A DNA stretch of 56,995 nt from a virus, in the IMG/VR virus record IMGVR_UViG_3300044742_000148; one strand, given 5' to 3'. Shown here in pieces: positions 4,255 to 41,686 of this stretch. Within the stretch, counting starts at the first letter, position 1, and the number at the start of each line of letters is the position of its first letter. Under the pieces are notes generated by a model. That model was given only the letters and a program-made list of their open reading frames with translations, did not search any database and had not been told where the DNA came from. The position numbers were made by a program, and so were the translations under genes.

Positions 4255-4439
4255 GCCTCACTCACGGCGTGGCCCTCGTCTGCAACCTGTGTGGCGCCAC
4301 GACGCCGTTTACCGTCTACGACGGCGTGCGCCAGAGGACCAACGCCGTCCACCTTGCCCGGGCTGTCGCCGAGAGCAAAGGCTGGAAGGCCAACCCCGTC
4401 GCCGACATCTGCTCCGTCTGCACGGAGGCTCGGCGATGA
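4251..4439 (+). CDS. Hypothetical zinc-ribbon-like small protein
   Basis: GTG 4251 in a GTGA overlap. Motifs CNLCG and CSVC. Confidence 0.6.
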   Translation: MSLTHGVALVCNLCGATTPFTVYDGVRQRTNAVHLARAVAESKGWKANPVADICSVCTEARR

Positions 4440-6154
4440 CCCGGCTGGCGCTCCGCCCGTACCAGGAGGAGGCCCTTGACGCCGTAGCCAAGGCGGAGGC
4501 TGAGGGCTGCCGCCGACAGCTCCTCGTGGCCGCCACCGGCCTCGGCAAGACGGTCATCTTCGCCCACCTCGCCGAACGACGGCAAGGCCGAGCTCTCATC
4601 ATCGCCCACCGGGACGAGCTCGTGTCGCAGGCCGCCGCCAAGGTCGCCGCCCAGTGGCCTGAGCTCGGCATCACCCCCGCCTGCGCCCAGCTTCTCGCCG
4701 ACGCCAAGGAGCCCGAGGTCCGTCTGATGGCCGCCTCCGCCCAGGTGCGCCGGGGAGGCATCGGCATCGTCAAGGCGGAGGCCGACGACACCGACGCCCA
4801 GGTGGTGGTCGCCTCCATCCAGACTCTGGCGAGGGCCCGCAGGAGGGACCGCCTCGCCGCCTCTCCGCCCTTCGACCTCGTGGTCGTGGACGAGGCCCAC
4901 CACGCCGCCGCCGACAGCTACGGAGCGGCCCTCGCCGCCGTCCGAGCCGGGGAGCCCGACGGGCCCCTCCTCATCGGCGTGACCGCCACCCCCGACCGGG
5001 GCGACGGCAAGGGCCTGGACGACCTGTTCGACCAGATCGTGGCGTCCTTCGACATCCTGTGGGGCATCCGAGCCGGGTACCTGTGCGACGTCCGAGGGCT
5101 CCGCATCGTGGTCGAGCACCTCGACCTGTCGGGCGTGAAGGTCCGCCGGGGCGACTACGACCAAGGCCAGGCCGGTCAGGCGATGGAGGACGCCGGAGCC
5201 CCCGAGCAGATCGTTCGGGCTTGGCTCGAGCACGCCCCCGGGAGACGGACTCTCGTGTTCACGCCGACCGTCGCCCTCGCCCATCAGGTGGCGGACGAGT
5301 TCAACCTGTCCGGGGTGCACGCCCAGGCCATCGACGCCTCAACGCCGCTGGGCGACCGCCGCCGAGCTCTCGCCGCCTACGCCACGGGCGAGATCGAGGT
5401 GCTGGCCAACTGCGGTGTCCTCACGGAGGGCTACGACGAGCCCCGCACCGACTGCATCGTGGTCGCCCGCCCCACCAAGAGTCGGGCCCTCTACGCCCAG
5501 ATGATCGGCCGGGGCACCCGCAAGCACCCCGACAAGGGCGACCTCCTCGTGCTCGACACGGTGGGCGCCACCCGCATGCACAGCCTCGTCACCGTCCCGT
5601 CGCTGATGGGCCTCGGGGAGACGGAGTGGGCCGGGCTGATGGAGACGGGCTCGGGCCTCCTGTCGCAGGTCATGCAGGACCACGACGACGAGCTCGTGCG
5701 TCTCGGCCGCCTCAGGGCGGAGGAGGCAGACCTGTTCCGCCAGCTCACGTCCAGCGCCGTGCGGATCGCCTGGGCGCCCGTGGACAGCCCCGAGCCGGGC
5801 CTCCGCCGGTATGCCCGCCCGATGGGCCCGGGGGAGCCGACCGTCATCCTCGCCCAGCGTGCCGAGGGGGACGTGTGGACGGCCGGGCTGCTCTGGCCCG
5901 ACGGCCGCAAGGAGGCGCTGATGGCCCTCCAGCCCCTGGCCGCCTGCCAGGGCGTGGCCGAGGACTTCGTGCGAGCCGGGCGCTCCGTCGTGCTGACCCT
6001 GGCCGACGCCCCGTGGCGGGCCCGGGCCGCCTCAGCGAAGCAGAAGGGCTACGCCCGAGCCCTGGGCGTGGAGGTGCCGAAGGGCGTGACGGCCGGGGAG
6101 CTCTCCGACCTGATCGCCGCCGCACAGCTCCGCAACGGAGAGGTGAGCCAATGA
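4436..6154 (+). CDS. Superfamily-2 DEAD/DEAH-box DNA helicase
   Basis: ATG 4436 in an ATGA overlap. LRPYQEEA, motif I VAATGLGKT, motif II VVVDEAHH, TATPDR and QMIGRGTR. Confidence 0.85.
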   Translation: MTRLALRPYQEEALDAVAKAEAEGCRRQLLVAATGLGKTVIFAHLAERRQGRALIIAHRDELVSQAAAKVAAQWPELGITPACAQLLADAKEPEVRLMAASAQVRRGGIGIVKAEADDTDAQVVVASIQTLARARRRDRLAASPPFDLVVVDEAHHAAADSYGAALAAVRAGEPDGPLLIGVTATPDRGDGKGLDDLFDQIVASFDILWGIRAGYLCDVRGLRIVVEHLDLSGVKVRRGDYDQGQAGQAMEDAGAPEQIVRAWLEHAPGRRTLVFTPTVALAHQVADEFNLSGVHAQAIDASTPLGDRRRALAAYATGEIEVLANCGVLTEGYDEPRTDCIVVARPTKSRALYAQMIGRGTRKHPDKGDLLVLDTVGATRMHSLVTVPSLMGLGETEWAGLMETGSGLLSQVMQDHDDELVRLGRLRAEEADLFRQLTSSAVRIAWAPVDSPEPGLRRYARPMGPGEPTVILAQRAEGDVWTAGLLWPDGRKEALMALQPLAACQGVAEDFVRAGRSVVLTLADAPWRARAASAKQKGYARALGVEVPKGVTAGELSDLIAAAQLRNGEVSQ

Positions 6155-6423
6155 GCCTCGACGTGGGAGGCCTGTACTCAGGCGTGGTCCTCACCGACGC
6201 CGCCGACATCGTGGAGGGCCTGCTGGCGCCCGACGTGACCCCCGACCGCATCAGCGACCTCCTGGAGCACGCCGCCGACGACGCCGACCGAGCCCACGCC
6301 GTCATGTTCTACCTGGTGCTCCGCTGCCGAGGCATCCCCTATGGCCACCCCATCGCTGACGGCCTGACGGCCCCCCACGTCCACGGGGCCCAACTGATCC
6401 TCCCCCCGGGGGTGCAGACGTGA
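6151..6423 (+). CDS. Hypothetical protein
   Basis: ATG 6151 in an ATGA overlap. Only the last 90 codons of ORF 5059..6423 look coding. Confidence 0.6.
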   Translation: MSLDVGGLYSGVVLTDAADIVEGLLAPDVTPDRISDLLEHAADDADRAHAVMFYLVLRCRGIPYGHPIADGLTAPHVHGAQLILPPGVQT

Positions 6424-6611
6424 CCTGCCCGGCCCAGTGGCGGACGTTCGCCATCCACGACTGCAAGCGCAAGGAGGGGCACGCCGGGTTCCACCTATGC
6501 CCCTGTGGGTCGGCCTGCGCCCACGCCGACCTCGGCAAGTACAGCCTGAGTGAGGCTGGCCGGGTGGGCGACCTCCGGTACGTCCGGTACAGCCCGCCGC
6601 CCCCCGCATAG
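6420..6611 (+). CDS. Hypothetical Cys/His-rich small protein
   Basis: GTG 6420 in a GTGA overlap. ORF 6420..6611. Confidence 0.55.
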   Translation: MTCPAQWRTFAIHDCKRKEGHAGFHLCPCGSACAHADLGKYSLSEAGRVGDLRYVRYSPPPPA

Positions 6612-6620
6612 GCTCGCCCC

Positions 6621-7391
6621 ATGCCTGCCTCCAAGAGCCCCGCCGTCCCCGGTCAACGCCGCCTGGAGTACCTGCCGCTCCGCCAGATCATGAGCGCCCC
6701 CCGGAACCCCAACGGCCACGACCTGCCCGCCATCGCCGCCTCCATCCGCCGGCACGGCTTCGTGGAGCCGGTGGTGGTGGACGAGCGGACCGGGTTCCTC
6801 GTGGGAGGCCACGGCCGCCTGGAGGTGCTCGCCGAGATGCGAGACGCCGGAGAGCAGCCCCCCGAGGGCATCGTGGAGCAGGAGCGAGCCGAGAACGACG
6901 TGGCCGCCGAGCCGGAGTGGCTGGCGCCGACCATCCTGGGCTGGGCGTCCCGCTCAGACGCCGAGGCCGAGGCGCTTCTGCTCGCCATGATGAAGCTCCC
7001 CAAGACGGCCGTCGCCTCGATGGACCTCCTCGCCACGATGCTGGACGAGCTCTCGCAGGGCACCGAGCTCGCCCTCGCCGGGACCGGGTACAGCCCCGAC
7101 GACCTCGATGACATCTTGGCTGGCCTGTCCGAGAGCGCACCCCTGACCGAGCTGGAGTACGGGGACAGTCGCAAGAGCGCCTACCCCGAGCCGTCGTACG
7201 GGGAACGCACCGACAACTACCGCAACAAGCAGGTGCGGGCGATGGTGTTCGACTACCCGCTGGACGATTACGCCCTGGTCGCCGAGATGGCCGCCCGGGC
7301 CCGGGGCGCCTTCGGTGTGCAGTCCAACGCCGAGCTGTTCCAGCGGATGCTGGAGGCGTGGTGCATGCAGAACCCCGAGACGCCCGCATGA
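6621..7391 (+). CDS. ParB/Srx-like N-terminal domain protein
   Basis: LEYLPLRQIMSAPRNPNGH...IRRHGFVEPVVVDERTGFLVGGHGRLEVL matches the ParB N-terminal (ParBc) pattern. Confidence 0.75.
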   Translation: MPASKSPAVPGQRRLEYLPLRQIMSAPRNPNGHDLPAIAASIRRHGFVEPVVVDERTGFLVGGHGRLEVLAEMRDAGEQPPEGIVEQERAENDVAAEPEWLAPTILGWASRSDAEAEALLLAMMKLPKTAVASMDLLATMLDELSQGTELALAGTGYSPDDLDDILAGLSESAPLTELEYGDSRKSAYPEPSYGERTDNYRNKQVRAMVFDYPLDDYALVAEMAARARGAFGVQSNAELFQRMLEAWCMQNPETPA

Positions 7392-8317
7392 GCGACACCG
7401 AGCTCGCCCCCGCCGTCACGGTCCGTCTTGCCCCGCTCGACCCGGAGGCCCGCAAGGCCGCACTCGACCTCCTCGGCAAGGGCGCCGCCCTGGAGCCCCC
7501 CGGGGCGATGATCAAGGCGCCGTGCCTCGTGCGAGCCGGAGACGAGCTCGTGGCAGTCGTTCTCAGGATGCCGCCGGGCCCGCTGGCCTGGGTCCGCAAG
7601 GCGCTTCTCGGCTGGCCGTTCGACACGACCACGTACCGTTCGGCTGGCATCAAGAACAACGCCCGGACGTTCGGCTACCTGGCCCGCAACACGCTCCTGC
7701 AGCGTGACGGCTGCCGGGCCTGCCAGGGCTCCCGGCTGGCGCCCGAGGCCCACCACGGCATCGTGGCCCAGGCAGAGCTCCTGTCCGCCATGCTGGCCGA
7801 GGCCGCCCCAGAGCTCGCCGCCCGGGACCGGGCCGCCGCCGAGGCCGTCTCGCCGGAGTGGCGCATGGGCGACAGCCAGTGGACCTCCGGGGTGGCGAAC
7901 AGCACCTCCGTCCTGCCCTACCACTTCGACCGCAACAACCTGGAGCCCGTCTGGTCAGCGATGATCGTGGTGCGGAGGGGCGTGCGGGGCGGCTACCTCC
8001 ACGTGCCCGAGCTCGGCGCCTCGTTCCACTGCCGAGACGGAGACGTGGTGTGCTTCCCGGGCTGGCGCTTCGTGCATGGCGTCACCCCGGTCAAGATCGT
8101 GGAGCCCGACGGCTACCGCATCTCCGCCGTGTACTACTGCGTGGAGCAGATGCGGGCGTGCGGCACCGGAGCCGAGGAGATGGCCCGGGCACAGCTCGCC
8201 CGCACCAACCGGGAGGCCGACACCAGGCCCACCGTGGACCGCATCCCGGCTGCGATCGCCCGCCGAGATGCCGCTTCCAAGCCCACGGTTGAGGACGACG
8301 AGAGTGACGAGCTGTGA
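7388..8317 (+). CDS. 2OG-Fe(II) dioxygenase acting on nucleic-acid bases (TET/JBP-like; AlkB-like is the alternative)
   Basis: ATGA overlap. H-F-D at 7922..7930, a distal His at 8075..8077 (FVHGVTP), then YRISAVYY. The ligand spacing is 51 and 14 residues. Confidence 0.65.
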   Translation: MSDTELAPAVTVRLAPLDPEARKAALDLLGKGAALEPPGAMIKAPCLVRAGDELVAVVLRMPPGPLAWVRKALLGWPFDTTTYRSAGIKNNARTFGYLARNTLLQRDGCRACQGSRLAPEAHHGIVAQAELLSAMLAEAAPELAARDRAAAEAVSPEWRMGDSQWTSGVANSTSVLPYHFDRNNLEPVWSAMIVVRRGVRGGYLHVPELGASFHCRDGDVVCFPGWRFVHGVTPVKIVEPDGYRISAVYYCVEQMRACGTGAEEMARAQLARTNREADTRPTVDRIPAAIARRDAASKPTVEDDESDEL

Positions 8318-9252
8318 CCCTGAACCCCGACATGGGCGCCCTCGATGACCTCGCCACCTTCGCCCGCATCGAGGTGGAGAGCCGAGACGTGGAGCCGTGG
8401 GCCGACCTCCTCCGCCACCTGTACATGGAGGACGGGGCGCTGAGCCTGGAGGCCGCCCTGTGGCTGGTGGCGCTCTACAACACGTACGACAGCCTGGGCT
8501 CCGCCTGCTCAGTGTTCGCCCGCTGGCCGAGCCCGCACGAGCTCCTGACGGCCGCCGACTTCCCCGACAGCGCCCAGTACGAGTGCACCCAGGAGCGCCG
8601 CAACCTCAGGGGCGGCCTCGTGCTGACCCGCCACGCCTCCTACGGAGCTCTCGTGATGGGCGGAGACGGCACCCAGGCCTACTGGCTCGGCCAGGGCATC
8701 CCCCAGCCCGACGTGACGACTGACTGCTGCGACACCGGAGGCGCCGAGGCCGCCTGGGAGCCGATGACCCGCCACCTCCGCCGAGTGTGGGGCGTGGGCC
8801 GCCAGGCCGCCTTCGAGTGGGCCGAGTTCCTCGCCAAGGTGGTTGGGATGCGGCTGACCGCCCCCCACGCCCAGCTGTGGGAGAGCGAGGGCCCGAGACG
8901 GAGCCTGCAGCGCCTCTACGGCAACCCCGACCCGGACCGGGCGTGGCTGGACGAGGCCGCCCTGGAGTGCCGGGCGTGGCTGCTCTCGCAGGGCATCGAC
9001 CTCTCGTGGGAGGACTTCGAGACGATCATCTGCGACTTCAACGTGATGCGGGACGGCCGCTACTACCCGGGCCGCCACCTGGCCGCCCTCCGGGAGGAGA
9101 TCGACGGCGTGGCCGAGTCGGCGCTCCGGGCCGCCCTGGAGCACGCATGGGAGCAGGTCGTGCCGCCCGAGTGGCAGTGCATTGACCCGGGCATCGACAA
9201 GGCCAAGCTGCCCGTCTACCGGGACTCCGGCCTGATCAGGAGCTCTGCATGA
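8314..9252 (+). CDS. Hypothetical helical protein (function unknown; candidate base-transferase by context only)
   Basis: GTG 8314 in a GTGA overlap. 312 aa. I can name no motif. It sits between the two oxygenase genes. Confidence 0.7.
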   Translation: MTLNPDMGALDDLATFARIEVESRDVEPWADLLRHLYMEDGALSLEAALWLVALYNTYDSLGSACSVFARWPSPHELLTAADFPDSAQYECTQERRNLRGGLVLTRHASYGALVMGGDGTQAYWLGQGIPQPDVTTDCCDTGGAEAAWEPMTRHLRRVWGVGRQAAFEWAEFLAKVVGMRLTAPHAQLWESEGPRRSLQRLYGNPDPDRAWLDEAALECRAWLLSQGIDLSWEDFETIICDFNVMRDGRYYPGRHLAALREEIDGVAESALRAALEHAWEQVVPPEWQCIDPGIDKAKLPVYRDSGLIRSSA

Positions 9253-10316
9253 CGCCCGAGGAGACGGCCCGCTTCCTCAACGGCTACGCCCGCCGCCACG
9301 CCGCCGGGGCGTTCGCCACGCCCCTTGCTCGAGAGTTGAACGACGGCAACGTCCGCATCTGGAAGAACCCGCTCGGCCGCACTGTCGCCGTGACCAAGCG
9401 GCTGACCCGGGACAGCGTCCGCACCGACTGGCTCGGCCAGCCGTACACGCTTCCCCGGGGCGCCACCATCGTGACGCACCTCGGCCGGGAGACGGGCTCC
9501 CCCATCCCAGCCGACCTGGACGAGTACCACGCCATCTACGCCTACGCCGACGACCTGGAGCTGACCGCCGGGCTGGGCCGCCTCGGCCGGGAGGTCACAG
9601 CCACGAGGATCAGCGCCGCCTCCGAGATGATCCACTGCTGGGGGTGGCCGGGCACCGCCCGCCCGACGCCCCTCCTCGACGGCCTGACCGTGGTGCCGGT
9701 CGCCACGCACTCGGGCGACCTCCTCAACGCCTGCCGCCGAGAGCTCGCCCGGGCGACGGGGTGGGCCGATGACTACCCGTTCTACTCAGACGGCTCCTGG
9801 TCGGCGCTGTCCCTCCGGGGCTTCGACCCGGACCCGGCCTGGGGGGTGAAGCCCGCCGAGATGGGCCGCAAGTGGAACGACGCCCACCCGGGGGCTCTCC
9901 GCCGGACGTGCGTCTGGACCGACCTCGCCGACCGCTGCCCCACCCTCGTGCAGATCGCCTCGCAGCTGCCCGGGGCCGGGCTGGAACGGGTCCGCCTGAT
10001 GCGCATGAAGCAGGGGAAGCTCGCCCGCCACACCGACATCACCGACAAGGCCAGCGGCCTCCGGGACGGGCAGATCGCCCGCTTCCACCTGCCCCTGATC
10101 ACCAGCGAGCTCGTCGCCCTCCACGTCTGGGAGCTGTCCGGGGAGCTCCACAACTGGCACCTCGACGTGGGCGTCTGGTACTACCTCGACGCCCGCAAGC
10201 CGCACGCCGTCACCCAGGGCGACCCTGACCTCGACCGCATCCACCTCGTCGCCGACGTCATCTGCGACGAGTCCACCCGCTCCTACCTGGAGGCTTCATG
10301 CTCGGCTGCTACCTGA
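9249..10316 (+). CDS. Two-domain protein with a C-terminal Asp/Asn beta-hydroxylase-type (cupin) 2OG-Fe(II) oxygenase domain
   Basis: ATGA overlap. KLARHTDITD (His at 10029..10031), IARFHLPLIT, YYLDARKPHAV. The N-terminal ~170 aa are unassigned. Confidence 0.65.
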   Translation: MTPEETARFLNGYARRHAAGAFATPLARELNDGNVRIWKNPLGRTVAVTKRLTRDSVRTDWLGQPYTLPRGATIVTHLGRETGSPIPADLDEYHAIYAYADDLELTAGLGRLGREVTATRISAASEMIHCWGWPGTARPTPLLDGLTVVPVATHSGDLLNACRRELARATGWADDYPFYSDGSWSALSLRGFDPDPAWGVKPAEMGRKWNDAHPGALRRTCVWTDLADRCPTLVQIASQLPGAGLERVRLMRMKQGKLARHTDITDKASGLRDGQIARFHLPLITSELVALHVWELSGELHNWHLDVGVWYYLDARKPHAVTQGDPDLDRIHLVADVICDESTRSYLEASCSAAT

Positions 10317-10861
10317 TCGGCCAACCTGGCGCCGGCAAGTCCACCCTGTTCCGGGAGGTGACCCAAGGCATTCCGAGCTACGAGAGCTCCCAGCCGTTCG
10401 CCCACACCGTGTACCTGCCCGAGCCGTCGGGGGGCCGCCCGATCGGCGCTCAGCTGGGCCGCCACCACGAGACGTTCCCGGGTACCGACCGCCTCAGCAT
10501 GGCCGTCCAGCCCGACGCCGAGGCGTGGGTGCGCTCCGCCCCCTACCCCGTCATCATCGGCGAGGGCGACCGTCTCGCCACGCTCGGCTTCCTCACAGCA
10601 CTGACGGAGGCGTGCGACGAGGGCTGCACCATCCTGTGGCTGGACACGCCCCAGTTGACCGCCAGGGCCCGGGCGACCCGCCGGGGCTCAGCCCAGACGG
10701 AGGCGTGGGTGAAGGGCCGCCGCTCCAAGGTCAACCGGCTGACCGACCTCCTGCCGGTGGTCCGGCTCGACGGCACCCTCAGCCCGGAGCTTCTCGCCGT
10801 GCAGGCCATCGGGGCGTCCCCCGCCTTGCAGGCGCTCCACGCCCTGGTGCCCGGCCTCTGA
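10298..10861 (+). CDS. Small P-loop kinase/NTPase
   Basis: RBS ggagg before ATG 10298. Walker A LIGQPGAGKSTL. 187 aa. 19-nt overlap with the upstream gene. Confidence 0.7.
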   Translation: MLGCYLIGQPGAGKSTLFREVTQGIPSYESSQPFAHTVYLPEPSGGRPIGAQLGRHHETFPGTDRLSMAVQPDAEAWVRSAPYPVIIGEGDRLATLGFLTALTEACDEGCTILWLDTPQLTARARATRRGSAQTEAWVKGRRSKVNRLTDLLPVVRLDGTLSPELLAVQAIGASPALQALHALVPGL

Positions 10862-10875
10862 CCAGGCTCGTCCCG

Positions 10876-10908
10876 GTAGACGCCCCAGGCTAACCCGTGT
10901 TAGCCTGG
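10876..10908 (+). promoter_or_regulatory. Phage promoter/operator motif copy B
   Basis: GTAGAC-N7-GCTAACCCGTGTTAGCCTGG. The arms GCTAAC and GTTAGC are perfectly complementary. It lies 50 nt upstream of ATG 10959. Confidence 0.6.
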
Positions 10909-10958
10909 GTAGGCCCCCAACCGGGGGGCGTCACACACAGCCCAAGGAGAGCCCCAAC

Positions 10959-12011
10959 ATGCCCGACTACTTCGAATCAGGCTTCGCCGTCCGAGATGTC
11001 TCCTGGCACGGCAAAGAGACGCTGCTGCAAGAGCACCCCGAGAACTGGGCGGCAGCCCGCATCCTCGCTGGCCTCGACTGGGAGCCCGAGTACCAGGACC
11101 TCTACGTCCCCGAGGTCATCCCCGCCGGGGAGAGCGCCCCCGAGGGCTCCATCCATATCAAGGCGATGGGCAACGACAGCGCCGACCTGTGGCACGTCCC
11201 GGTCAACGGCCACCAGGCCATCATCCGCAGCGACAACCGGAAGGTGCTCGCCACCCCCAAGGACTCGTTCCGGCTGATCAGCAACACCGAGATGGGCGAC
11301 CTCCTGGAGGCGTACAGCGAGGCGTGGCGCAAGGCCGGAGCCAAGGTGCTGTTCGACACCGCCGGGTCCGTCTACGAGGGCCGGTGGGTGTACGCCACGC
11401 TCCTGCTGGACGAGCCCTACACCATCCCCGGCGACCCCAGCCCCATCCTCCCGTACGCAGCGTTCCTCAACGCCCACGACGGCACGGCCGCCTGCAAGGT
11501 CGTCAACACTCAGGTCCGGGTCGTCTGCGCCAACACGTGGAAGATGGCCGACGTGGAGGGCGAGCGCTCTGGCCGCCAGATCGTCATCCGCCACACGTCC
11601 GGTGCGACGGAGCGCCTGGAGGAGGCCAAGGCCGCCCTCGCCAGCGTCCGTGACGAGGTGGCGAACTACCAGATGCTCGCCACCGAGCTTGCCTCGATCA
11701 ACGTCTCAGACGCCCTCGTCAAGACGTTCCTCAGCGAGTTCATCCCGGTGCCGGAGAACAGCTCCGAGCGCACCCGGACGGCCCGCCTGGAGCGCCAAGG
11801 CATGTTCATGGCGCTGTACGCCTCGTCGCCCACGACCGACGGCATCCGGGGCACCGCCTACGGCCTCGTGCAGACGGCCGGGGAGTACCTGGACCACCTG
11901 CGCCCCGTCCGGAACAGCGACACCTACCTGGCCCGCACCCTGTTCAACAGCGAGCCCATCAAGGGCAACGCCGTCCGCCTCGTCCGAGAGCTCGTGCAGG
12001 AGGGCGTGTGA
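10959..12011 (+). CDS. DUF932-like phage/plasmid protein
   Basis: RBS aaggaga. N-terminus MPDYFESGFAVRDVSWHGKETLL...AGLDWEPE. The size (350 aa) is typical of the DUF932 family. Confidence 0.7.
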   Translation: MPDYFESGFAVRDVSWHGKETLLQEHPENWAAARILAGLDWEPEYQDLYVPEVIPAGESAPEGSIHIKAMGNDSADLWHVPVNGHQAIIRSDNRKVLATPKDSFRLISNTEMGDLLEAYSEAWRKAGAKVLFDTAGSVYEGRWVYATLLLDEPYTIPGDPSPILPYAAFLNAHDGTAACKVVNTQVRVVCANTWKMADVEGERSGRQIVIRHTSGATERLEEAKAALASVRDEVANYQMLATELASINVSDALVKTFLSEFIPVPENSSERTRTARLERQGMFMALYASSPTTDGIRGTAYGLVQTAGEYLDHLRPVRNSDTYLARTLFNSEPIKGNAVRLVRELVQEGV

Positions 12012-26231: not shown

Positions 26232-29200
26232 GTGGCACGGACCCGGGGGAAGCAGCAGCGTGACTTCGGCATCGTCGCCGCCGCTCAACGCATCAACCTC
26301 GCCGACAGGGCCGCCGCCCATAGGGCCGCCGCCGTCGCCCAACCCTGGCAGGCGGAGGCGTGGGAGGCGTATAACGAGGTCCCCGAGATCGGCGAGAGCC
26401 TGACCTACCGGGGCGACCTGATGGCGCAGCTGATCCTGTTCCCCGCTGTGGCCGACCCGGAGAACCCGGATGGCGACCCCATCCCCCTCGCCGACGAGAA
26501 GGTGGCCTGCCCCCCCGCCGTGCTCGAAGCGGCCACGGCAGAGCTCGCCCGTCTCCGCACGTGGGCTGGCGGCCAGGCCGAGATTCTGCGCCTCTACGAG
26601 ATCAACATGCAGGTCGCCGGGGAGCTGTACCTGGTCGGCTACGCCCCCGACGGAGACGAGCCCGAGGAGTACTGGGCGGTCGCCTCGACGCAGGAGGTGA
26701 AGGAGCAGGACGGGGAGTACACGGTCCTGGCGAAGCCGGGCGACACCGAGGGCCGCAAGCTGACCGCCAACGACTACATCGAACGGTACTGGACCCGTCA
26801 CCCGCAGTGGGCCGCTCTCCCCGACAGCCCGCTCCGCCGCCTCCGCACCGACACTCGGGCCGCCATCACCCTCAACGAGCAGGTGATCACCGAGGCGCTG
26901 TCGACGCTGCCAGCGGGCATGCTCCTCATCCCCAACGAGATTCAGTTCGAGTGGCCCGCCGGGTACACGCCGTCCGACAAGGACGCCGAGCGGAACCCGT
27001 TCGACGTCATGCTCGAGATGGCGATTCAGGACGGCATGGTGCCGGGGAGCTTCGCCAGCCAGTACCCGCTGACCGTCCACGGCGCCGCCGAGTTCTTGAA
27101 GGAGATCAGACGGGTCAGCCTCGCCCGTGAGGCCGACACCACCACGGAGGCCCGTCTCGCCGCCCGAGTGGACCGCATCGCCCGGGGCCTGCCGCTGCCT
27201 GTGGAGAAGGTCATGGGCCACCAGCAGACCACGTTCGCCAACGCCAAGCAGGTCGATCAGGACACCTTCGACGACTACCTGCGCCCGTCGGCCGTGTCGA
27301 TGGTGACGGCCATCACCTACTGCTTCTACCAGCCGCACCTGATCGAGAACCCGGCCATCCCGGAGGACTGGCAGAAGCGCATCGTGGCGTGGTTCAACCC
27401 GTCTGCCCTGATCGCCGACCCGGACCCGGAGGAGAGCGCCGACTTCGGCGTGACCGAGGGCCTCGTGAAGGCGGCCAGCTGGCGAGCGAAGCGTGGCTGG
27501 ACGGAGGAGGACGCCCCCGACGCCGAGGAGCTTCTGTTGCGGATGGCGTACCGCCGGGGTGCCATCGACCCGGGCCTGACCGCACAGCTCCTCCGTGACC
27601 TGGCCGCCGAGGTGGGCGTGGAGCTGAGCGTGGCCGAGACGCAGACGATCGCCGAGCAGAGCCCGCAGCAGGCCGCCGCTCTCCTGTTGAAGTGGCACCA
27701 GGCGAAGGCCCGTGGCGAGCCGCCCCCACATCTGACGCCCCGGCAGCCGCTGGCGCTGACGGCCGGGGCCACGACAGCGCCAAGGGTGATCGACGGAGGG
27801 CGAGAGCTCCTGGCGATTGACCAAGAGCTCCGGGTGCGGTGGCGGGCCGCCATGGACGCCGCCTTGGACCGGGAGCTGGAGCGGACAGCGAACAAGCTCC
27901 GCAACACCGCCCGCAAGCTCGGGGTGCTCAGCGCTCTGCAGGCTCGCCCCGAGGACGTCGCTCCTCTGCTCGGGCGAGCGGTGGTGGCCGCCGCCGGAGT
28001 GGAGTACGACTGGAGCCGTCTCCGACTCTCGTTCATGGGGCTTGGCCGCCGGGCCCAGGATCAGGCCGTGGATGCCGCTGGGCGCATCGCTGGGGGCTTC
28101 TCGACGGCCCAGCGGCAGACGCTGAAGCTGCGCCAGGCCGACGACCTCGGCACGGCGTGGAAGTGGGTCCAGCAGGCGATGACGGGCCTCGCCGATCTGC
28201 GCCTGTACGACCCGTCCACCGGCCAGTACACGGGGGTGGGCGAGAGCGACCCCACGAGCTTCATCCCGGCCGGGATGGTCCGCCAGGCGATGAACGTCGC
28301 CGGGGGGAGCCCGGTCCGGGTGCTCACCGACGAGACACTCCGGAACGGGGAGGCGTGGATCAGTGTCGGGGACCGGGTGGAGGGCATCGGCGTCGGGGAG
28401 CGCATCCGGGACGCCCTCGCCTCGGAGGGCGTGGAGGTCGTCCGGTACAGGTGGATCTACGGGCCCGCCATCCGCATGCACCCCTTCGAGCCCCACCAGC
28501 GCCTCGATGGCCTCGTGTTCGAGTCGTTCGAGGACGACCGCCTCGCCAACACCTACGGGTGGCCTGTCCGCTCGCACTTCCTCCCGGGCGACCACGGGGG
28601 CTGCGTCTGCGACGTGGAGCCGATCTTGGGCGCCCCACCCCCGGTCGAGGAGCCGCCCCCGCCGCCGCCCGTGCTCGGCAAGGAGACGGGCAAGGCCGTC
28701 CGAGGGTTCGACACGCCCCTGGAGGAGAAGCTCGCTCGCCGCTTCGCCGGGTGGCGCCGCCTCCGCAGCGTCGATCAGGAGCAGCTGGACGAGCTCAACG
28801 TGGCGTACAACGCCATTCGTCGCCACCCCAACTTCTCCGTGGCGAGCCCGACGGTGGAGACGGTCGCCAAGACGTTCCGGGGCCAGTTCAAGACGTTGCA
28901 GCTGACCAAGACTCGGGCCAAGACGCTCCTCACGACGACGCCCGAGAACCTGAACCCAACCCAGCTGGACGGCATCCTGGGAGACGCCACCCGCCTCGGC
29001 CTCGACCCGCAGGACATCGCCGACCAGGGGCTGGTGGTCGTAGCCAAGGTCGGCGACCGGGAGGTCGTAGCGTTCGGCTCCGAGCACCTGTGGGCCGCTC
29101 TCGAGCGTGGCGCCGCCGAGGAGTTCTACCCCAAGGTCCTGTACTGGAACGCCAAGATCGACGTGCCGCCGGGCGCTGACCTGGAGCGCCTGTTCCACGC

Positions 29201-30068
29201 CGACGACCTGACCCGTGTCCGCCAGGCCGCCGCCCGTGAGGCGAAGGCGACCCGTCTCGCCCTCGGCCTGGACGAGCCCACAGGCAAGGCCACGCCGGGC
29301 GCCAAGACGTCGGGCCTGGCAGCTCTCCCCCCGGCCGACCGGCCCGCCGCCGCCGCCGAACAGTTCGCCAAGCGCTGGGGCCGGGGTGGCGTCGGGGGCA
29401 CCAACGTGGACACCAAGGGCGCCTTCACGGGCATGTCGACCCGGGTCGCCAACGACGTCACCGACGAGCTCGACCGGATGATGCGAGCCCACCCCGTGAC
29501 CGCCGGCAAGCTCCGCTCCGTCCACACCGTCAAGCTCGGGAGCAACACGCACGCCCAGGCCAATCAGGCCACCCGGGAGCTCACGTTCAACAGCCAGTTC
29601 TACGGCTACGGCAAGGAGAAGCGTTTCCAGGAGACGTGGGAGGCGTGGAACCACCAGCCGGGCTCGGGGTGGAGCGCCTACGTGGAGGGCGCCGCCGAGC
29701 GCAAGATCACCCACGCCCGGTACACGACCACCCACGAGTTCGGCCATCACATCGACTACACCGCCCGAGACAAGCTCGGCGAGGACGCCTGGGATCAGCT
29801 CGTGCAGGACACCATCGAGGCCGACTGGCGCCGGGTGCGGGGCACCAAGGGCAAGCTCCGCCGGACCCAGGAGCGGAGCAGGGGCCGGGCGAAGCTGCCG
29901 CCGGAGATGGCCGCCCACGTCAAGGAGCATCTGTCCACGTACGCCACGACTAACCTCCGGGAGGTCATGGCTGAGGTCGTCGCCGAGGCGACCCTGTCCC
30001 TCAACCCCCGGCCTCTCGCCACCGCCCTGTACAAGCTCCTGTTGAAGCACGCAGAAGGAATCGCATGA
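26232..30068 (+). CDS. Portal protein fused to a MuF-like (SPP1 gp7) domain and a C-terminal HExxH domain (1278 aa)
   Basis: GTG 26232 is the first in-frame start after whiB. The N-terminus is portal-like. MuF signature [16 protein letters not shown] near 28584..28613. HEFGH at 29733..29747. Confidence 0.75.
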
Positions 30069-37660: not shown

Positions 37661-38134
37661 ATGAGCAAGACCCAGCCCACCCTCACCATCACCGTCCCCG
37701 GCCGCTTCCTCATGGCGGAGGCCCCCAAGGGCGCCAAGGTCGTCAAGCCCGGCACCCGCCAGTCCACGGTCGAGTTCACCTCGGCGCAGCTGATCGAGTT
37801 CATGGCGAAGGCGGCCCACTTCGCCAACCACAAGAACTTCAGCCCGGTCCCGGCCGACCTGTGGCCGGTCATCGACTCGGCCCGCAACACGGTCAAGGCG
37901 CTCGACGCCAACGCCGCTGTGGCGGAGTTCCTCGGCATCCAGGGCCCCGTCGTTCCCCGGACGGCCCCGGCCCCCGAGGTCATCGAGGTCCCCGAGTCGA
38001 TCACCATCGTGGTCGAGACGCCGGACCCGGCCCCCGAGGTTGGCGACATCGACCCGGTCGCAGTGAAGCGGGCTGCCCGCAACGCCGCAGCCCGTGAGCG
38101 CCGTGCAGCCAAGAAGGCGAAGGCGAACGCCTGA
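37661..38134 (+). CDS. Hypothetical protein with a basic Ala/Lys-rich C-terminus
   Basis: ORF 37661..38134. RBS caggagg. Confidence 0.65.
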   Translation: MSKTQPTLTITVPGRFLMAEAPKGAKVVKPGTRQSTVEFTSAQLIEFMAKAAHFANHKNFSPVPADLWPVIDSARNTVKALDANAAVAEFLGIQGPVVPRTAPAPEVIEVPESITIVVETPDPAPEVGDIDPVAVKRAARNAAARERRAAKKAKANA

Positions 38135-38210
38135 CCCTCAGGGGGGGAGACCTCGCCGGGTGCGGGAAACGCCCCGGGGCAGGAAGGCTCCCCCCCACCT
38201 GGTCCAAGCA

Positions 38211-38254
38211 GCGCCCCCCGTCCACACCAGGGCCGGGGGGCGCTCTGCGTTCTC
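38211..38254 (+). terminator. Intrinsic terminator candidate
   Basis: 10-bp stem gcgccccccg/cggggggcgc (38211..38243) followed by tctgcgttctc. Confidence 0.5.
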
Positions 38255-38260
38255 GGGGCC

Positions 38261-38281
38261 GCTAACCCCGGTAACGTCTGG
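38261..38281 (+). promoter_or_regulatory. Degenerate promoter motif copy I (leaderless configuration)
   Basis: GCTAACCCCGGTAACGTCTGG. The -10-like ACGTCT at 38274..38279 lies 6 nt before ATG 38286. Confidence 0.4.
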
Positions 38282-38285
38282 CGCC

Positions 38286-40052
38286 ATGCGCATCGCCTAC
38301 ATCGGCAACTTCACCCGCCCCTGGTGCACCGAGGTCCACGTGGCCGCCGCCCTCACCGAGCTCGGCCACAGCGTGGTCCGTCTCCAGGAGAACCGCACCC
38401 AGCTCGACCAGCAGACCAAGGCCCTGCTCCACGGGGGCAACCGGCCGGGCCGCCTCGGGCAGGCGCCCCCGGACCTGTTCATCTGGACTCGCACGTGGGG
38501 CGTGCCGCCCGCCCAGGCGAACGGGATGCTGGAACAGCTGCGGGCCGCCGGGGTGCCCATCGTGTCGTTCCACCTGGACCGCTACCTCGGCATCGAGCGT
38601 GAGGGGATGGTGGACTCGGAGCCGTTCTTCCGGACGGACCTCCTGTTCACGCCCGACTCGGGCGACTGGGCCGCCCACGGTGTGCGGGCCCACTGGATGC
38701 CGCCGGGGGTGGACCGGGCCGAGGCCAACGCCGTGTACCGGCCGAACCCCAAGCGGTGGCCGTGGAAGGTGGTCATGGTCGGGAGCTTCCCGTACCCGCA
38801 CCCCGACTGGCACCCGGTACGAGCGGAGGTCGTCTCTCATCTGAGAGCCCGTTACGGAGACGCCTTCGCCGTGCTGCCCGCCGATCAGGGGGGCCGACCG
38901 ATCCGCAACGCCGACCTGGGGGAGCTCTACGCCACCGTGCCGGTGGTGGTGGGCGACAGCTGCTGGGCCGGGATGGCCGACGACCCGGGCGGCTACTGGT
39001 CCGACAGGGTGACCGAGACGCTGGGCCGGGGCGGCTACCTCATCCACCCGCACAGCGCCAAGCTCGCCGAGATGTACCCCGACCTCGCCCTCTACAGCCT
39101 GGGCAACATGGACGAGCTCGGCACGCTGATTGACGAGGTGCTGGAGCCCCCGAACGACCTGATCGCTGCCGCTGTGGCGAGGGCCCGGGTCCGCAACAGG
39201 GAGCTCGTGCTCGGCCGGGACACCTACGCCCACCGCATGGAGGAGCTTCTGGTCACAGCGATGGACGCCGCCCAGATCAGGGAAGCGTCCCGGCCTGTGC
39301 CGCCAGCCCCTCCGCCGAGGGCCCTGAGGAGGGCCCCTCGTGTGCCGGAGAGCCCCGAGGTCGCCGCCGCTGCCCAGACGGTCACTGGCACCTACCGGCC
39401 CCGCAGGCTGCGTCATACGTTCCGCTGGGCTGAGGGCGTCTCCGACAGCCACGCCGTCAAGGAGGTGTGGGACAACGACGACTACGGGATGGCCGGGCTT
39501 CCGCTGGCCGGGGCGACCGTCATCGACGTCGGCGCCAACCTGGGCGCCTTCTCCGTGCTGGCGGCCATGCTCGGCGCCCGAGACGTGCACGCCTACGAGC
39601 CTCACCCGGAGACGTTCGCCTGCCTGCTCGAGAACGTGGCGGCCTGCAGGGTGGCGAACAGGATCACGTGCCACAACCACGCCGTGGGGGGCTGGGCCCG
39701 GGTGGATGCGCTGGTGGGCTCTGGGGGTGGCGCTCACATCGGGGCCGGGGTGGACGGGCCCGAGGTGGCTGTGCTCGACATCTCGGCCGTGCTGGAGCCG
39801 GTCCAGGGGGAGGTCGTTCTGAAGCTGGACTGCGAGGGCTCCGAGTACGAGATCATCGACGGGCTGGCCGACGCTGACTGGGCGAAGGTCAAGGCGGTGG
39901 TGATGGAGTGGCACGGGCCCGGCATGCCCCACCTGGCCCACATCGACCTCGACCGCTGGGGGCCGATGGTCCAGCGTCTGGCCGACCACGGGGCGTTGAC
40001 GATCAAGGGCCACCCGCATCTGGGTGGGCTTCTGTGGTGCAGGAGGTACTGA
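38286..40052 (+). CDS. Fusion of a CgeB-like glycosyltransferase domain and an FkbM-family methyltransferase domain
   Basis: Internal ATG 38286 of ORF 38094..40052. The N-terminal part ends ...DRVTETLGRGGYLIHP...RDTYAHRMEELL. The C-terminal part has VIDVGANLGAFSV...MEWHG. Confidence 0.7.
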   Translation: MRIAYIGNFTRPWCTEVHVAAALTELGHSVVRLQENRTQLDQQTKALLHGGNRPGRLGQAPPDLFIWTRTWGVPPAQANGMLEQLRAAGVPIVSFHLDRYLGIEREGMVDSEPFFRTDLLFTPDSGDWAAHGVRAHWMPPGVDRAEANAVYRPNPKRWPWKVVMVGSFPYPHPDWHPVRAEVVSHLRARYGDAFAVLPADQGGRPIRNADLGELYATVPVVVGDSCWAGMADDPGGYWSDRVTETLGRGGYLIHPHSAKLAEMYPDLALYSLGNMDELGTLIDEVLEPPNDLIAAAVARARVRNRELVLGRDTYAHRMEELLVTAMDAAQIREASRPVPPAPPPRALRRAPRVPESPEVAAAAQTVTGTYRPRRLRHTFRWAEGVSDSHAVKEVWDNDDYGMAGLPLAGATVIDVGANLGAFSVLAAMLGARDVHAYEPHPETFACLLENVAACRVANRITCHNHAVGGWARVDALVGSGGGAHIGAGVDGPEVAVLDISAVLEPVQGEVVLKLDCEGSEYEIIDGLADADWAKVKAVVMEWHGPGMPHLAHIDLDRWGPMVQRLADHGALTIKGHPHLGGLLWCRRY

Positions 40053-40324
40053 TGCTGGGGCGTGTGGCGCTGGTGAAGGTGCGGGCGACCGCCGAGAGCG
40101 TGGATCCGGAGACGGGGGTGCGCCGCTTCTGGCGGATCGAGTCTCGCCGGGCGCACCTGGAGGAGACCATGGTGGGGCAGATGGGCGGTTGGCCCGAGAT
40201 GGTGCTCTCCCTGGGCGTGGCCAGCTTCTACCAGGCCTCGGGCGTTACGCCCGACTGCACGTTCGCCTGGGCGGAGGACGAGGCCACCTTGGCCGAGCAC
40301 TTCCCCTGGCACGAGGAGGGCTGA
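40052..40324 (+). CDS. Hypothetical protein
   Basis: ATG 40052 in a TGATG overlap. Internal start of ORF 39908..40324. Confidence 0.55.
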   Translation: MLGRVALVKVRATAESVDPETGVRRFWRIESRRAHLEETMVGQMGGWPEMVLSLGVASFYQASGVTPDCTFAWAEDEATLAEHFPWHEEG

Positions 40325-40345
40325 TGATGCCTGTACTGATGGAGC

Positions 40346-40501
40346 GTGACCGACGAGGAGCTCCAGGCGATGGGCGACTACTGCATGGCGCTGCTGGAGG
40401 AGGGAGGCCGGGTCGAGGAGGTCTACTGGCTGCTGGTGGAGGCCCGGGAGAGGGGGAGCTGGCGTGGACCCTCTGATGATCGTGAGCCCCCACCTGGATG
40501 A
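40346..40501 (+). CDS. Possible small protein (below the ORF-track cut-off)
   Basis: Hand translation: VTDEELQAMGDYCMALLEEGGRVEEVYWLLVEARERGSW... GC3 is high up to about 40460. ATG 40370 is an alternative start, preceded by gaggag. Confidence 0.35.
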   Translation: MTDEELQAMGDYCMALLEEGGRVEEVYWLLVEARERGSWRGPSDDREPPPG

Positions 40502-41138
40502 CGCCGTGCTGTCCTGCGGGCAGCTGATGGCCGGAAGGCCCGACTGCGTGGTGGTGACCGTGTTCGCCGGGGCGCCGCTCAACGTGCAGACCACCCCCTA
40601 CGACGAGGCGTGCGGCTTCCGGGACAGCGACGAGGCGCTGACGCTCCGCCGGGACGAGGACGCCGAGGCGTGCGCCCGTCTCGGGGCGACACCGATCCAT
40701 CTGGACTTCCCTGACGGCCAGTACGAGCCCAAGCAAGAGCTCCTGTTCCACATCACCGACAAGCTCCTGCGGACGTGGGAGGCGCTGGGGCGCCCCCCAG
40801 TGCTCGGCCCGGCCGGGCTGATGCACCCCGACCACGAGCAGGTCGCCGCCGCCTGCATCAGGGCGTTCGGCTGGCAGGCCCGCTGCCCGGAGCTGTACGT
40901 CTACGAGGAGCTTCCCGCCCGGGTGCTGTGGCCGGAGAGCGTGGAGCCCGCTCTGACCCGCTGGGAAGTGGGCACGGTGCACCATTACGCCCCGGGCTTC
41001 CTCGGCACCGGGTCCAAGGTCCGCAAGGCGGCCGCCATCAGGGCCTACCGTAGCCAGATGCCTCAGATCGCCCCGCTGGGGGATGGCGCCGGGCGGACGT
41101 GCCTGTTCGTTCCCGAGCGCTACTGGAGGCCGTCATGA
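40476..41138 (+). CDS. PIG-L/LmbE-family deacetylase
   Basis: MIVSPHLDDAVLSCG (PHxDD), RRDEDAEACARLG and HPDHEQV. GTG 40464 is an alternative start. Confidence 0.8.
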   Translation: MIVSPHLDDAVLSCGQLMAGRPDCVVVTVFAGAPLNVQTTPYDEACGFRDSDEALTLRRDEDAEACARLGATPIHLDFPDGQYEPKQELLFHITDKLLRTWEALGRPPVLGPAGLMHPDHEQVAAACIRAFGWQARCPELYVYEELPARVLWPESVEPALTRWEVGTVHHYAPGFLGTGSKVRKAAAIRAYRSQMPQIAPLGDGAGRTCLFVPERYWRPS

Positions 41139-41686
41139 TCCGGCTCAACGTGGGCTGCGGGCTCGACGTGCGAGACGGCTGGGTCAATGTCGATCTTGGC
41201 TCGTGGGACTACGACCCGGAGGGGCCCGACGCCGACCTGGGGCCCCGGCTCGTGCTGCCGCCCGGGGTGCTCTACGCCGACGCCGCCGAGGACCTCGGGG
41301 AGTGGCACGGCCGGTGCGAGACGGTCCTGCTCAACCACGTCCTCCACATGCTCCCCTACGACCAGGCCGACGTGGCGCTCGACCAGTGCGCCCGATGCCT
41401 GGCGCCGGGGGGCGAGCTCGTCATCGTGGAGGCAGACGTCCTGGGCGTCATCGGTGGGCCGAGGGCCAACTGGCCTGTCGCCGAGCTCGTCGCCGACGAC
41501 GTGGAGCCGACGGTGCAGGGCAAGTTGCTCCGGTGGGCCGTCTGGCACGGCACCCGCCGCTCGCTGTGGAGCGTGGAGAGCCTGATCGAGCGGCTGACCC
41601 GCCGGGGCCTGGAGGCCGACGAGACGGAGGCCATCTGGGGCCGGGAGGCCGAGTCGTTCGCCGTGTTCGGGGCCCGGCCCGAGTGA
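41135..41686 (+). CDS. Class I SAM-dependent methyltransferase
   Basis: ATG 41135 in an ATGA overlap. Motif I LNVGCGLD. Post-I/II region LAPGGELVIVE. Confidence 0.65.
   Translation: MIRLNVGCGLDVRDGWVNVDLGSWDYDPEGPDADLGPRLVLPPGVLYADAAEDLGEWHGRCETVLLNHVLHMLPYDQADVALDQCARCLAPGGELVIVEADVLGVIGGPRANWPVAELVADDVEPTVQGKLLRWAVWHGTRRSLWSVESLIERLTRRGLEADETEAIWGREAESFAVFGARPE

Follow-up and report, generated by a model that had tools for sequence, protein, structure and literature searches.

What could an oxygenase of the aspartate/asparagine beta-hydroxylase (AspH) type be doing in the middle of a phage operon for DNA base modification? The question is raised by five consecutive plus-strand genes at positions 6,621 to 10,861 of IMG/VR virus record IMGVR_UViG_3300044742_000148, a stretch of 56,995 nucleotides (nt) that we refer to as the window. 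Judging from protein families and from analogy with characterised systems, we think that the five genes probably encode a post-replicative thymidine-hypermodification pathway in which the oxygenase oxidises an amino acid borne by the DNA. Their products, with sizes in amino acids (aa) and the basis of each assignment, are as follows.

6621..7391, + strand: ParB-like protein, 256 aa (PHROG and family profile)
7388..8317, + strand: TET/JBP-family Fe(II)/2-oxoglutarate (2OG) dioxygenase, 309 aa (Pfam Tet_JBP and profile)
8314..9252, + strand: putative amino-acid:DNA transferase (ADDT, also AADT), 312 aa (PF18724 and catalytic Cys)
9249..9752, + strand: two-domain oxygenase of 355 aa, N-terminal domain, residues 1-168 (AlphaFold2 (AF2) model)
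9753..10316, + strand: two-domain oxygenase, C-terminal Fe(II)/2OG domain, residues ~169-355 (Pfam Asp_Arg_Hydrox and Foldseek)
10298..10861, + strand: P-loop nucleotide kinase, 187 aa (Pfam Ploopntkinase3 and Walker A)

All five open reading frames (ORFs) were present on the plus strand at the coordinates given by a first-pass annotation of the DNA, and the junctions are those it had described, namely ATGA at 7388-7391, GTGA at 8314-8317, ATGA at 9249-9252 and a 19-nt overlap at 10298-10316. The frames carry a strong coding signal, with G+C fractions of 0.91-0.95 at third codon positions (GC3) versus 0.47-0.54 at second positions (GC2), and the Joint Genome Institute (JGI) gene calls on identical contigs have the same starts and boundaries.

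In the pathways described by Lee et al., a P-loop kinase adds phosphate to 5-hydroxymethyldeoxyuridine (5-hmdU) within DNA, after which an AADT swaps this phosphate for glycine, serine or putrescine; the resulting adducts are tailored by pyridoxal-phosphate (PLP), radical S-adenosylmethionine (SAM), flavin or acetyltransferase enzymes, and in some metavirome contigs a TET_JBP gene was seen to stand in for the dUMP hydroxymethylase (PMC5889632, PMC8989533). The phage TET/JBP enzymes of this type of neighbourhood were shown by O'Toole et al. (PNAS 2026) to be post-replicative thymine dioxygenases; one subclass, which has a variable insert and a C-terminal extension of its own, needs an adjacent ParB-like protein on double-stranded DNA. 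This activating ParB keeps its nucleotide-binding and C-terminal domains and lacks the DNA-binding domain (PMC13229309). The corresponding gene set of Rhodococcus phage Tonitrus has also been annotated as a thymidine hypermodification system (PMC11955845). The order of reactions proposed for the operon in the first-pass annotation, in which the base is oxidised, phosphorylated and then substituted, matches the published one (PMC8989533, PMC13229309).

We compared the gene neighbourhoods of the oxygenase in 31 IMG/VR loci, three other contigs, Mycobacterium phage LilMcDreamy and this genome. The kinase gene lies directly after the oxygenase gene in all of these loci and the ADDT gene directly before it wherever the contig reaches, placing the oxygenase between ADDT and kinase in every locus that is long enough (>35 loci, 38-99% identity). 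ParB and TET genes are present in all loci of sufficient length, in one of two gene orders, ParB-TET-ADDT-Oxy-kinase or ParB-ADDT-Oxy-kinase-TET. The five-gene set was also found in further metagenome contigs, a Kribbella prophage and a cultured mycobacteriophage; since the same set recurs in all of these sources and in IMG/VR, the arrangement is far beyond chance.

Five divergent loci (L027, L029, L032, L035 and L037) had their ADDT gene missed by the iterative search. The single gap ORF that was scanned, in L029, is an ADDT by Pfam (50 bits), and a near-identical ORF is found in L037; the gaps in L032 and L035 match that of L029 in size, and the L027 contig ends too close to the oxygenase to show the gene. 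Pairwise comparison of the L029-type ADDT with the window ADDT gave no similarity (E = 0.065), so the oxygenase pairs with at least two ADDT lineages. The window ADDT is 51% identical to LilMcDreamy gp3 versus 27-33% to others, which had suggested a subclade of ADDT linked to the oxygenase; as a general rule this co-evolution was rejected, because the five divergent loci pair the oxygenase with an ADDT lineage that lacks pairwise similarity to the window ADDT.

The same slot is filled differently in other phages. The PaMx11 genes run in the order AADT, FAD lyase, GNAT and kinase, and PaMx11 gp47 is the lyase that turns N-alpha-glycinyl-thymine into 5-aminomethyl-dU (PMC8989533). Phelemich gp4, which is also encoded between ADDT and kinase, has a Rossmann-type N-terminus for flavin or nicotinamide adenine dinucleotide (FAD/NAD) and is 34% identical to gp47 over 65 residues (E = 5e-8). 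Because a flavin lyase occupies this position in PaMx11 and a flavoprotein does so in sister modules that lack the oxygenase, the slot between transferase and kinase would be expected to encode a processor of the appended amino acid.

The AspH-type cupin that had been noticed in the C-terminal half of 9249..10316 is borne out, in that its ARHTD, RFHLPL and KPHAV motifs are present and the protein scores 26 bits on Pfam Asp_Arg_Hydrox (PF05118) against a cut-off of 22.6. The full-length AF2 model (predicted local distance difference test (pLDDT) 93.4, predicted template modelling score (pTM) 0.89) has two domains, with the C-terminal half modelled as a double-stranded beta-helix. A Foldseek comparison of the oxygenase with solved structures returned these matches.

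4p7w, L-proline cis-4-hydroxylase: E = 1e-10
7v4f, Cpz10: E = 6.5e-8
1e5r, proline 3-hydroxylase: E = 1.6e-7
5apa, human AspH: E = 3e-6

The sequence profile of the oxygenase also matches 4p7w (E = 6.8e-5). Single-sequence searches of the window TET, ADDT and oxygenase against PDB sequences gave noise only, such as HIV Vif, so family profiles were used for structure matches; an NCBIfam scan of the five operon proteins returned no informative match. In an alignment of 38 oxygenase sequences, H261-x-D263, R278-x-H280, K317-P-H319 and R330-x-H332 are invariant. HMMER aligns R278, H280, H319, R330 and H332 with R121, H123, H160, R170 and H172 of Cpz10, and these residues also align with those of proline 4-hydroxylase; H261 and D263 lie in a region outside the HMMER alignment and correspond by motif to Cpz10 H115 and D117. 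The substrate that Cpz10, a beta-hydroxylase, works on is an aminoacyl group joined to a uridine nucleoside (PMC9814697).

The phage oxygenase thus shares with 4p7w, 1e5r and Cpz10 (7v4f) the double-stranded beta-helix fold and the catalytic signature HxD...RxH...H...RxH (PMC9814697), whereas those enzymes are single-domain proteins, 16-21% identical to it, that act on free amino acids or on a nucleoside-antibiotic intermediate. What sets it apart from the AspH-like small-molecule hydroxylases is an obligate extra N-terminal domain and a DNA-modification context. The tetratricopeptide-repeat (TPR) substrate-binding domain of AspH, an enzyme with EGF-domain substrates, is absent, and the protein is not AspH proper; judged by its sequence, it works like the AspH clan, is not an AspH orthologue and has small-molecule hydroxylases as its closest relatives. 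At least 379 full-length homologs of 350-390 aa (clusters at 90% identity) were found, mostly in metagenomes, with some in Kribbella genomes (prophages) and one in a cultured phage. A 624-aa member, P0338, has a match to an intein-splicing domain between its N-terminal and AspH-like domains; the 690-aa member P0241 may resemble it, but without an intein match.

The N-terminal domain (residues 1-168), when modelled alone, has a pLDDT of 91.5. Foldseek found no significant match for it in the PDB (best E = 0.06), and GNAT acetyltransferases lead its weak matches in the PDB and BFVD (E 0.008-0.5, template modelling (TM) scores 0.3-0.46). A Pfam scan of 27 members gave no credible match and no GNAT, with three unrelated families matching one member each (E 0.04-0.12); hhalign detected no similarity between the domain profile and the PaMx11 GNAT gp48; and the beta4-alpha3 region reads RxPGAPxP, as against Q/RxxGxG/A in GNAT proteins. 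With the GNAT reading below significance in four tests, the modelled domain can be called weakly GNAT-like, as a lead only. When 1.84 billion representatives were searched exhaustively with its profile, the domain turned up in only 108 clusters, and because nearly all of these matches form the N-terminal end of an AspH-like protein 350-410 aa long, the domain is, by its sequence distribution, a private partner of the AspH-like oxygenase. It may hold the DNA or the base, or may be a degenerate or unusual acyltransferase.

The name of the Pfam family points to protein Asp/Asn beta-hydroxylases, and stand-alone 2OG oxygenases are known among the auxiliary genes of phages, so that the oxygenase might be unrelated to DNA chemistry, hydroxylating a metabolite or the Asp, Asn or Pro of a protein from host or phage, and simply sharing the early operon. 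We consider this improbable, however, as the gene is inserted exactly between those for ADDT and kinase, its start and stop codons overlapping both neighbours in the window, and this order is kept across the >35 loci at 38-99% identity and through both overall gene orders; moreover, the gene is absent from phages with a flavoenzyme in the slot, and the substrate-binding TPR domain of AspH is missing.

In a second alternative, the oxygenase acts before transfer, hydroxylating a free amino acid (for example proline or pipecolate at C3 or C4, Asp or Asn at C-beta) that ADDT then installs on 5-phosphomethyl-dU. Its best structural and profile matches are indeed the free L-proline cis-4- and cis-3-hydroxylases, it lacks an obvious DNA-binding signature, and the synteny with ADDT fits substrate supply equally well. 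Nevertheless, the characterised tailoring enzymes of the AADT-kinase slot all act on the DNA-bound adduct (PMC8989533), the partnership with at least two pairwise-unrelated ADDT lineages fits a common DNA adduct better than a special donor, and Cpz10, a close structural match, takes a nucleoside-attached aminoacyl group as its substrate (PMC9814697). We therefore regard action before transfer as rather unlikely and continue with oxidation of the DNA-borne amino acid as the preferred reading.

Outside this neighbourhood, distant members of the oxygenase family (L045 6001-7203, L047 6001-7158, L048 1594-2751 and L049 6001-7350) score 36-46 bits on Asp_Arg_Hydrox. They are not beside an ADDT, kinase or TET gene, and in at least four contigs their neighbour is a faint N6_N4_Mtase-like gene. 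L045 and L049 also encode a PALP (PLP-dependent) enzyme, a family-A polymerase fused to uracil-DNA glycosylase (UDG) is found in L047 and L048, and L045 has a separate 415-aa UDG-family protein. On sequence grounds, the family may be a general tailoring enzyme of phage DNA modification, with a second and as yet undescribed type of cluster.

The dioxygenase that would begin the pathway carries the ligands listed in the first-pass annotation: H179-F-D181 (from 7922), H230 in FVHGVTP and R244 in YRISAVYY, spaced by 51 and 14 residues. Its assignment to TET/JBP is upheld, marginally, by Pfam Tet_JBP (PF12851; 35.7 bits versus a cut-off of 34.9), and a precomputed Pfam match on the identical JGI protein agrees; the relative in locus L029 scores 70.9 bits on the same model. 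H179, D181, H230 and R244 are invariant in 16 TET homologs. A profile of 16 orthologues matched TET2 (E = 1.7e-6) as well as Naegleria Tet (NgTet), CMD1 and CcTet, with the HxD, distal His and Arg of the window protein aligning with the HRD, LHATTP and TRISLVFY motifs of TET2. An AlkB-type enzyme, the alternative considered for 7388..8317, was ruled out, since the search with the TET-family profile matched TET2 and gave no AlkB match. Homologs that are ~40% identical occur in 102 phage records, mostly of cluster-B mycobacteriophages and of Microbacterium, Arthrobacter, Gordonia and Rhodococcus phages. By family and by analogy, the enzyme is predicted to convert T into 5-hydroxymethyluracil in DNA.

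The ParB-type N-terminal domain proposed for 6621..7391 is supported by phrog_620 'ParB-like' (1.4e-23). A family profile of 15 orthologues matches Noc/Spo0J/ParB structures over the N-terminal CTPase domain only (E = 3e-10), with no match to a helix-turn-helix DNA-binding domain among the structures searched; a Pfam scan of the window ParB-like protein itself gave no match. The gene adjoins the TET gene in nearly all related loci. The protein is thus a ParB homolog that is co-localised with a dioxygenase and has an N-terminal nucleotide-binding domain and no recognisable DNA-binding domain, and other ParBs of such type have been shown to activate the adjacent dioxygenase (PMC13229309). By analogy, it is predicted to be the activator of the neighbouring thymine dioxygenase.

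The aGPT-Pplase-type transferase that the first-pass annotation expected in such a pathway proved to be the 312-aa protein that it had left unnamed, which belongs to PF18724 (ADDT, formerly aGPT-Pplase clade 2). The match of 8314..9252 (31.1 bits versus a cut-off of 26.2) covers the C-terminal part of the model only; among the matches listed, all but two of at least 120 homologs carry PF18724, and PaMx11 gp46 itself scores 97 bits. The ADDT family profile matches the solved 'Amino acid:DNA transferase' chain 25qc_A (E = 5e-5), and hhalign against PaMx11 gp46 gave E = 4.6e-4 over 223 columns at a probability of 33%. C240, which is invariant in 30 ADDT homologs, aligns with Cys247 of gp46 in a common ETI[IL]C motif, and Cys247 is the catalytic cysteine that attacks C6 (PMC11472151). 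From this family membership, the window ADDT is predicted to replace the phosphate of 5-phosphomethyl-dU with an amine or alcohol nucleophile. We know of no specificity code for the ADDT nucleophile. Validated ADDT/AADT members transfer Gly, Ser or putrescine (PMC8989533). Fusions with a Tet_JBP-like N-terminal half and an ADDT C-terminal half occur as ORFs in two other loci (L004 6226-8004, 592 aa; L024 2536-4455), joining the first and third steps of the pathway.

The P-loop kinase call for 10298..10861 is confirmed by 93.7 bits on Ploopntkinase3 (cut-off 27) and by the GQPGAGKST Walker A motif. BLASTP against the validated PaMx11 kinase gp49 gave E = 0.002 over the P-loop segment only, and gp49 matches AAA_33 and, weakly, HMUDK_HMUD1, not Ploopntkinase3. 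On family and analogy, the 187-aa protein is predicted to be a 5-hmdU DNA kinase.

Public labels for these genes differ from the assignments given here. We rejected the PHROG/RefSeq label 'queuine tRNA-ribosyltransferase' for the TET gene as a propagated error, given the Tet_JBP and TET2 matches, and likewise 'terminase small subunit' for the kinase, which the proven kinase PaMx11 gp49 also bears in RefSeq. TET/JBP genes are mislabelled 'queuine tRNA-ribosyltransferase' or 'DpdA-like tRNA-guanine transglycosylase' across RefSeq/GenBank actinophage records, and 5-hmdU-kinase-type genes are labelled 'terminase small subunit', with examples at L001 855-1787 and 3761-4333, in L009 and at L011 14218-14787; the two misannotations are systematic in dozens of RefSeq actinophage genomes. 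Taken at face value, the RefSeq/PHROG labels 'ParB-like partition protein' and 'terminase small subunit' would describe a cluster serving DNA packaging or partition, and in many actinophages the module does abut the large terminase gene. This explanation is barely credible, as the proven kinase gp49 carries the same erroneous label (PMC8989533), the window kinase scores 93.7 bits on a kinase family, the large terminase gene is 6.6 kb away in the window genome, and ParBs of such type activate a dioxygenase (PMC13229309).

Which pyrimidine the pathway would start from depends on the rest of the genome. The window, with a G+C content of 72% throughout, is a complete, circularly permuted genome of an uncultivated high-G+C phage, because gene order continues over its ends (AAA_24, IstB-like, VRR_NUC, helicase) and contigs of the same genome start at different points. 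A near-identical genome (~57 kb) has been assembled in dozens of JGI and European Nucleotide Archive (ENA) metagenomes, as contigs of 56,977-57,094 bp with differing start points, and the index lists one of its proteins for 107 collection blocks, 46 of them with contigs of the 50-200 kb class. A near-identity DNA search with the operon through 50,697 phage records returned no match, so the phage has no close isolate relative among sequenced phages.

Gene calls were checked with Pfam over ~1-19.2 kb and 24-57 kb (~90% of the genome; ~19.4-24 kb lies outside), and the covered genes include a terminase, a tape-measure-like protein, an amidase, Gam and a WhiB-like protein. No thymidylate synthase, dUMP hydroxymethylase, C5-methyltransferase or DNA polymerase was annotated in these parts. 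Since the Pfam-covered genes lack a dUMP hydroxymethylase and a thymidylate synthase, the DNA would be built from ordinary dTTP and its thymine modified after replication. The substrate of the operon is thus likely to be ordinary T rather than 5-methylcytosine (5mC). The first-pass annotation had proposed oxidation of a 5-methylpyrimidine; the oxidised pyrimidine fits, and it is almost certainly T, not 5mC. A cytosine module, in which TET oxidises 5mC made by the host and the kinase and transferase act on 5-hydroxymethylcytosine, takes its support from phage TETs of other clades that are 5mC dioxygenases (PMC8256090), and sequence alone leaves the substrate unfixed. We find it highly improbable, since the Pfam-annotated parts hold no C5-methyltransferase, the members of the ParB-associated clade tested so far oxidise T (PMC13229309), and uracil derivatives are the substrates of the homologs of ADDT and of the 5-hmdU kinase characterised so far (PMC8989533).

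Taken together, family membership and gene context suggest a thymidine pathway of four steps. In the first, the ParB-like protein would activate the TET/JBP enzyme, which would convert selected thymines in double-stranded DNA into 5-hmdU; in the second, the P-loop kinase would phosphorylate the hydroxymethyl group. In the third, Cys240 of ADDT would attack C6, the phosphate would leave and an amino acid would join the exocyclic methylene, so that an aminoacyl-thymine forms whose alpha-carboxylate is free; this chemistry has been shown for the PaMx11, M6 and ViI homologs (PMC8989533, PMC11472151). In the fourth step, which is new and the least certain, the oxygenase would oxidise a C-H bond of the thymine-attached amino acid, and the alpha-carboxylate of the N-alkyl amino acid may be held by R278 and H280. 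Side-chain oxidation at C-beta or C-gamma would yield a hydroxy-aminoacyl-thymine, a new base, while hydroxylation of C-alpha would produce a hemiaminal, which would break down to 5-aminomethyl-dU; 2OG and O2 would then take the role that the flavin lyase gp47 has in PaMx11. The earlier suggestion that the end product may be a new base is therefore possible, but formation of the known 5-aminomethyl-dU by a new route is also conceivable. The modified phage DNA would presumably resist host nucleases.

Several points weigh against this pathway. The Tet_JBP score is barely over its cut-off, and ~19.4-24 kb of the genome is without a Pfam check. The kinase belongs to a different Pfam clade from the validated 5-hmdU kinases and resembles gp49 in the P-loop only. 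The N-terminal domain of the oxygenase is without an assigned function, the net charge and isoelectric point of the oxygenase domains give no hint of DNA binding (even ADDT is acidic), and the solved enzymes most closely related to the oxygenase take free amino acids or small molecules, rather than DNA, as their substrates. Finally, the activities ascribed to all five proteins in the pathway are inferred from their families and homologs.

A bolder version of the preferred reading can be held only tentatively. In it, the 355-aa protein founds a Fe(II)/2OG family that acts on thymine-amino-acid adducts in duplex DNA, the N-terminal domain holds the DNA or a flipped base, the product is an uncatalogued hydroxylated aminoacyl-thymine, and the distant family members belong to a second, wholly undescribed hypermodification pathway with the same tailoring chemistry.

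Several known systems resemble the operon in part. Like the ParB-dependent 5mYOX clade C1 clusters (PMC13229309), it has a ParB-like gene beside TET/JBP, a linked P-loop kinase and AADT, and no neighbouring C5-methyltransferase. The partners of the C1 clusters, in contrast, are GATases, kinases and AADTs, with no AspH-type oxygenase named in the main text, and the C1 enzymes tested came from other metavirome contigs (PMC13229309). For other 5mYOXs, preferences for NTR and YTY contexts are reported. With the 5-AcNmdU pathway of PaMx11 (gp46-gp49) the operon shares the order of transferase, tailoring enzyme and kinase, the ADDT family with its aligned Cys, and the misannotation of the kinase. 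It differs in that PaMx11 makes 5-hmdU before replication with a dUMP hydroxymethylase, while TET/JBP would act on DNA here, and in that the Fe(II)/2OG oxygenase replaces the flavin lyase and no stand-alone GNAT is present.

The backbone of ParB, TET, ADDT and kinase is also found in Acadianvirus (Phelemich, Reprobate), Gordonia phage MakoManhole and Rhodococcus phage Tonitrus, whose TET and ADDT proteins are ~40% and 27-33% identical, respectively, to those of the window. None of these modules has an AspH-like gene: those of the Acadianvirus type have the FAD/NAD-Rossmann protein in the ADDT-kinase slot (Phelemich), and those of the Gordonia and Rhodococcus phages have a ~290-aa protein after the kinase. 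Two such ~290-aa proteins (L010 3054-3926 and L002 3761-4642) are 47% identical, with a GxGxxG-like N-terminus and no Pfam family; the protein may be another tailoring enzyme.

The closest counterpart is Mycobacterium phage LilMcDreamy (NC_051582), the sole cultured phage with the oxygenase in the 50,697-record collection. Its genes 1-5 have the identical five-gene order, including the two-domain oxygenase, with gp4 43.5% identical to the window oxygenase over 92% of the query and gp3, as noted above, 51% identical to the ADDT. Unlike the window phage, LilMcDreamy belongs to Bclasvirinae, has a 71.5-kb genome and a different host and backbone, and carries the module at the left genome end next to the terminase. 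Its proteins are labelled 'queuine tRNA-ribosyltransferase', 'hypothetical' and 'terminase small subunit', showing that the system went unrecognised there. The oxygenase family is common and has in LilMcDreamy, which grows on M. smegmatis, a cultured and genetically tractable representative, so the proposal is directly testable.

The core of thymidine hypermodification was reportedly predicted in 2013. It is thus already known, and was partly proven between 2018 and 2026, with the ParB-dioxygenase step shown experimentally in 2026; what is new here is the oxygenase family, its private N-terminal domain and its fixed place in the pathway. In the literature searched we found no description linking an AspH-type hydroxylase to phage hypermodification, although an earlier passing mention is possible. 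Thymidine hypermodification matters because it supplies new DNA chemistry and enzymes useful in sequencing and labelling, and because it lets phages resist restriction and CRISPR. Its known tailoring enzymes are PLP decarboxylases, radical-SAM isomerases, flavin lyases and acetyltransferases, and a Fe(II)/2OG oxygenase that works on an amino acid joined to a DNA base would, if true, be a new DNA-acting class, leading either to a natural base that is new or to 5-aminomethyl-dU by a second route that depends on oxygen.

The first-pass annotation had also placed the five genes as one coupled unit directly downstream of a superfamily 2 (SF2) helicase gene. The five genes are coupled, but the array starts upstream of the ParB-like gene. 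The stop codon of the helicase (4436-6154; Pfam ResIII, DEAD and Helicase_C) overlaps a co-directional 90-aa ORF (6151-6423) via ATGA, a 63-aa ORF (6420-6611) overlaps the latter by four bases according to the gene coordinates, and a 9-nt gap separates its end from the ParB-like gene. The five genes thus make up the final part of a longer co-directional array that includes the helicase gene. Past the kinase, a 97-nt spacer before the next gene holds one further feature.

10885..10930, + strand: two adjacent G+C-rich stem-loops without a T tract, past the kinase stop codon

Folding of 10862-10945 gave -43.2 kcal/mol (z = -3.5), and none of 200 shuffles was equally stable. A scan of the 72% G+C window for consensus promoters and terminators yielded nothing useful, and the hairpins past the kinase went uncalled in it because they lack the T tract; judged by sequence, the stem-loops probably mark the 3' end of the transcription unit. 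Directly after them, a gene for a DUF932 protein (10959-12011; 144 bits) has its own AAGGAG ribosome-binding site, and in each of the three identical-genome contigs (L006-L008) the kinase gene is likewise followed by one for a DUF932 protein.

Elsewhere in the ~57-kb genome, the replication genes comprise a helicase, a DnaC/IstB-like loader, AAA_24, Gam and VRR_NUC, with a DNA polymerase apparently absent. Amid the structural genes, 38094-41686 encodes a glycosyltransferase-FkbM methyltransferase fusion (652 aa in our ORF, 588 aa in the JGI call), a PIG-L de-N-acetylase and a SAM methyltransferase; this cluster may glycosylate the virion, as in some mycobacteriophages, and is less likely to add sugar to the DNA. 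A WhiB-like gene (PF02467; 25876-26220) lies directly upstream of a gene for a 1278-aa protein (26232-30068) without a Pfam match. Separate from the latter, a 1040-aa PhageMin_Tail protein (45712-48834) looks like the tape measure.

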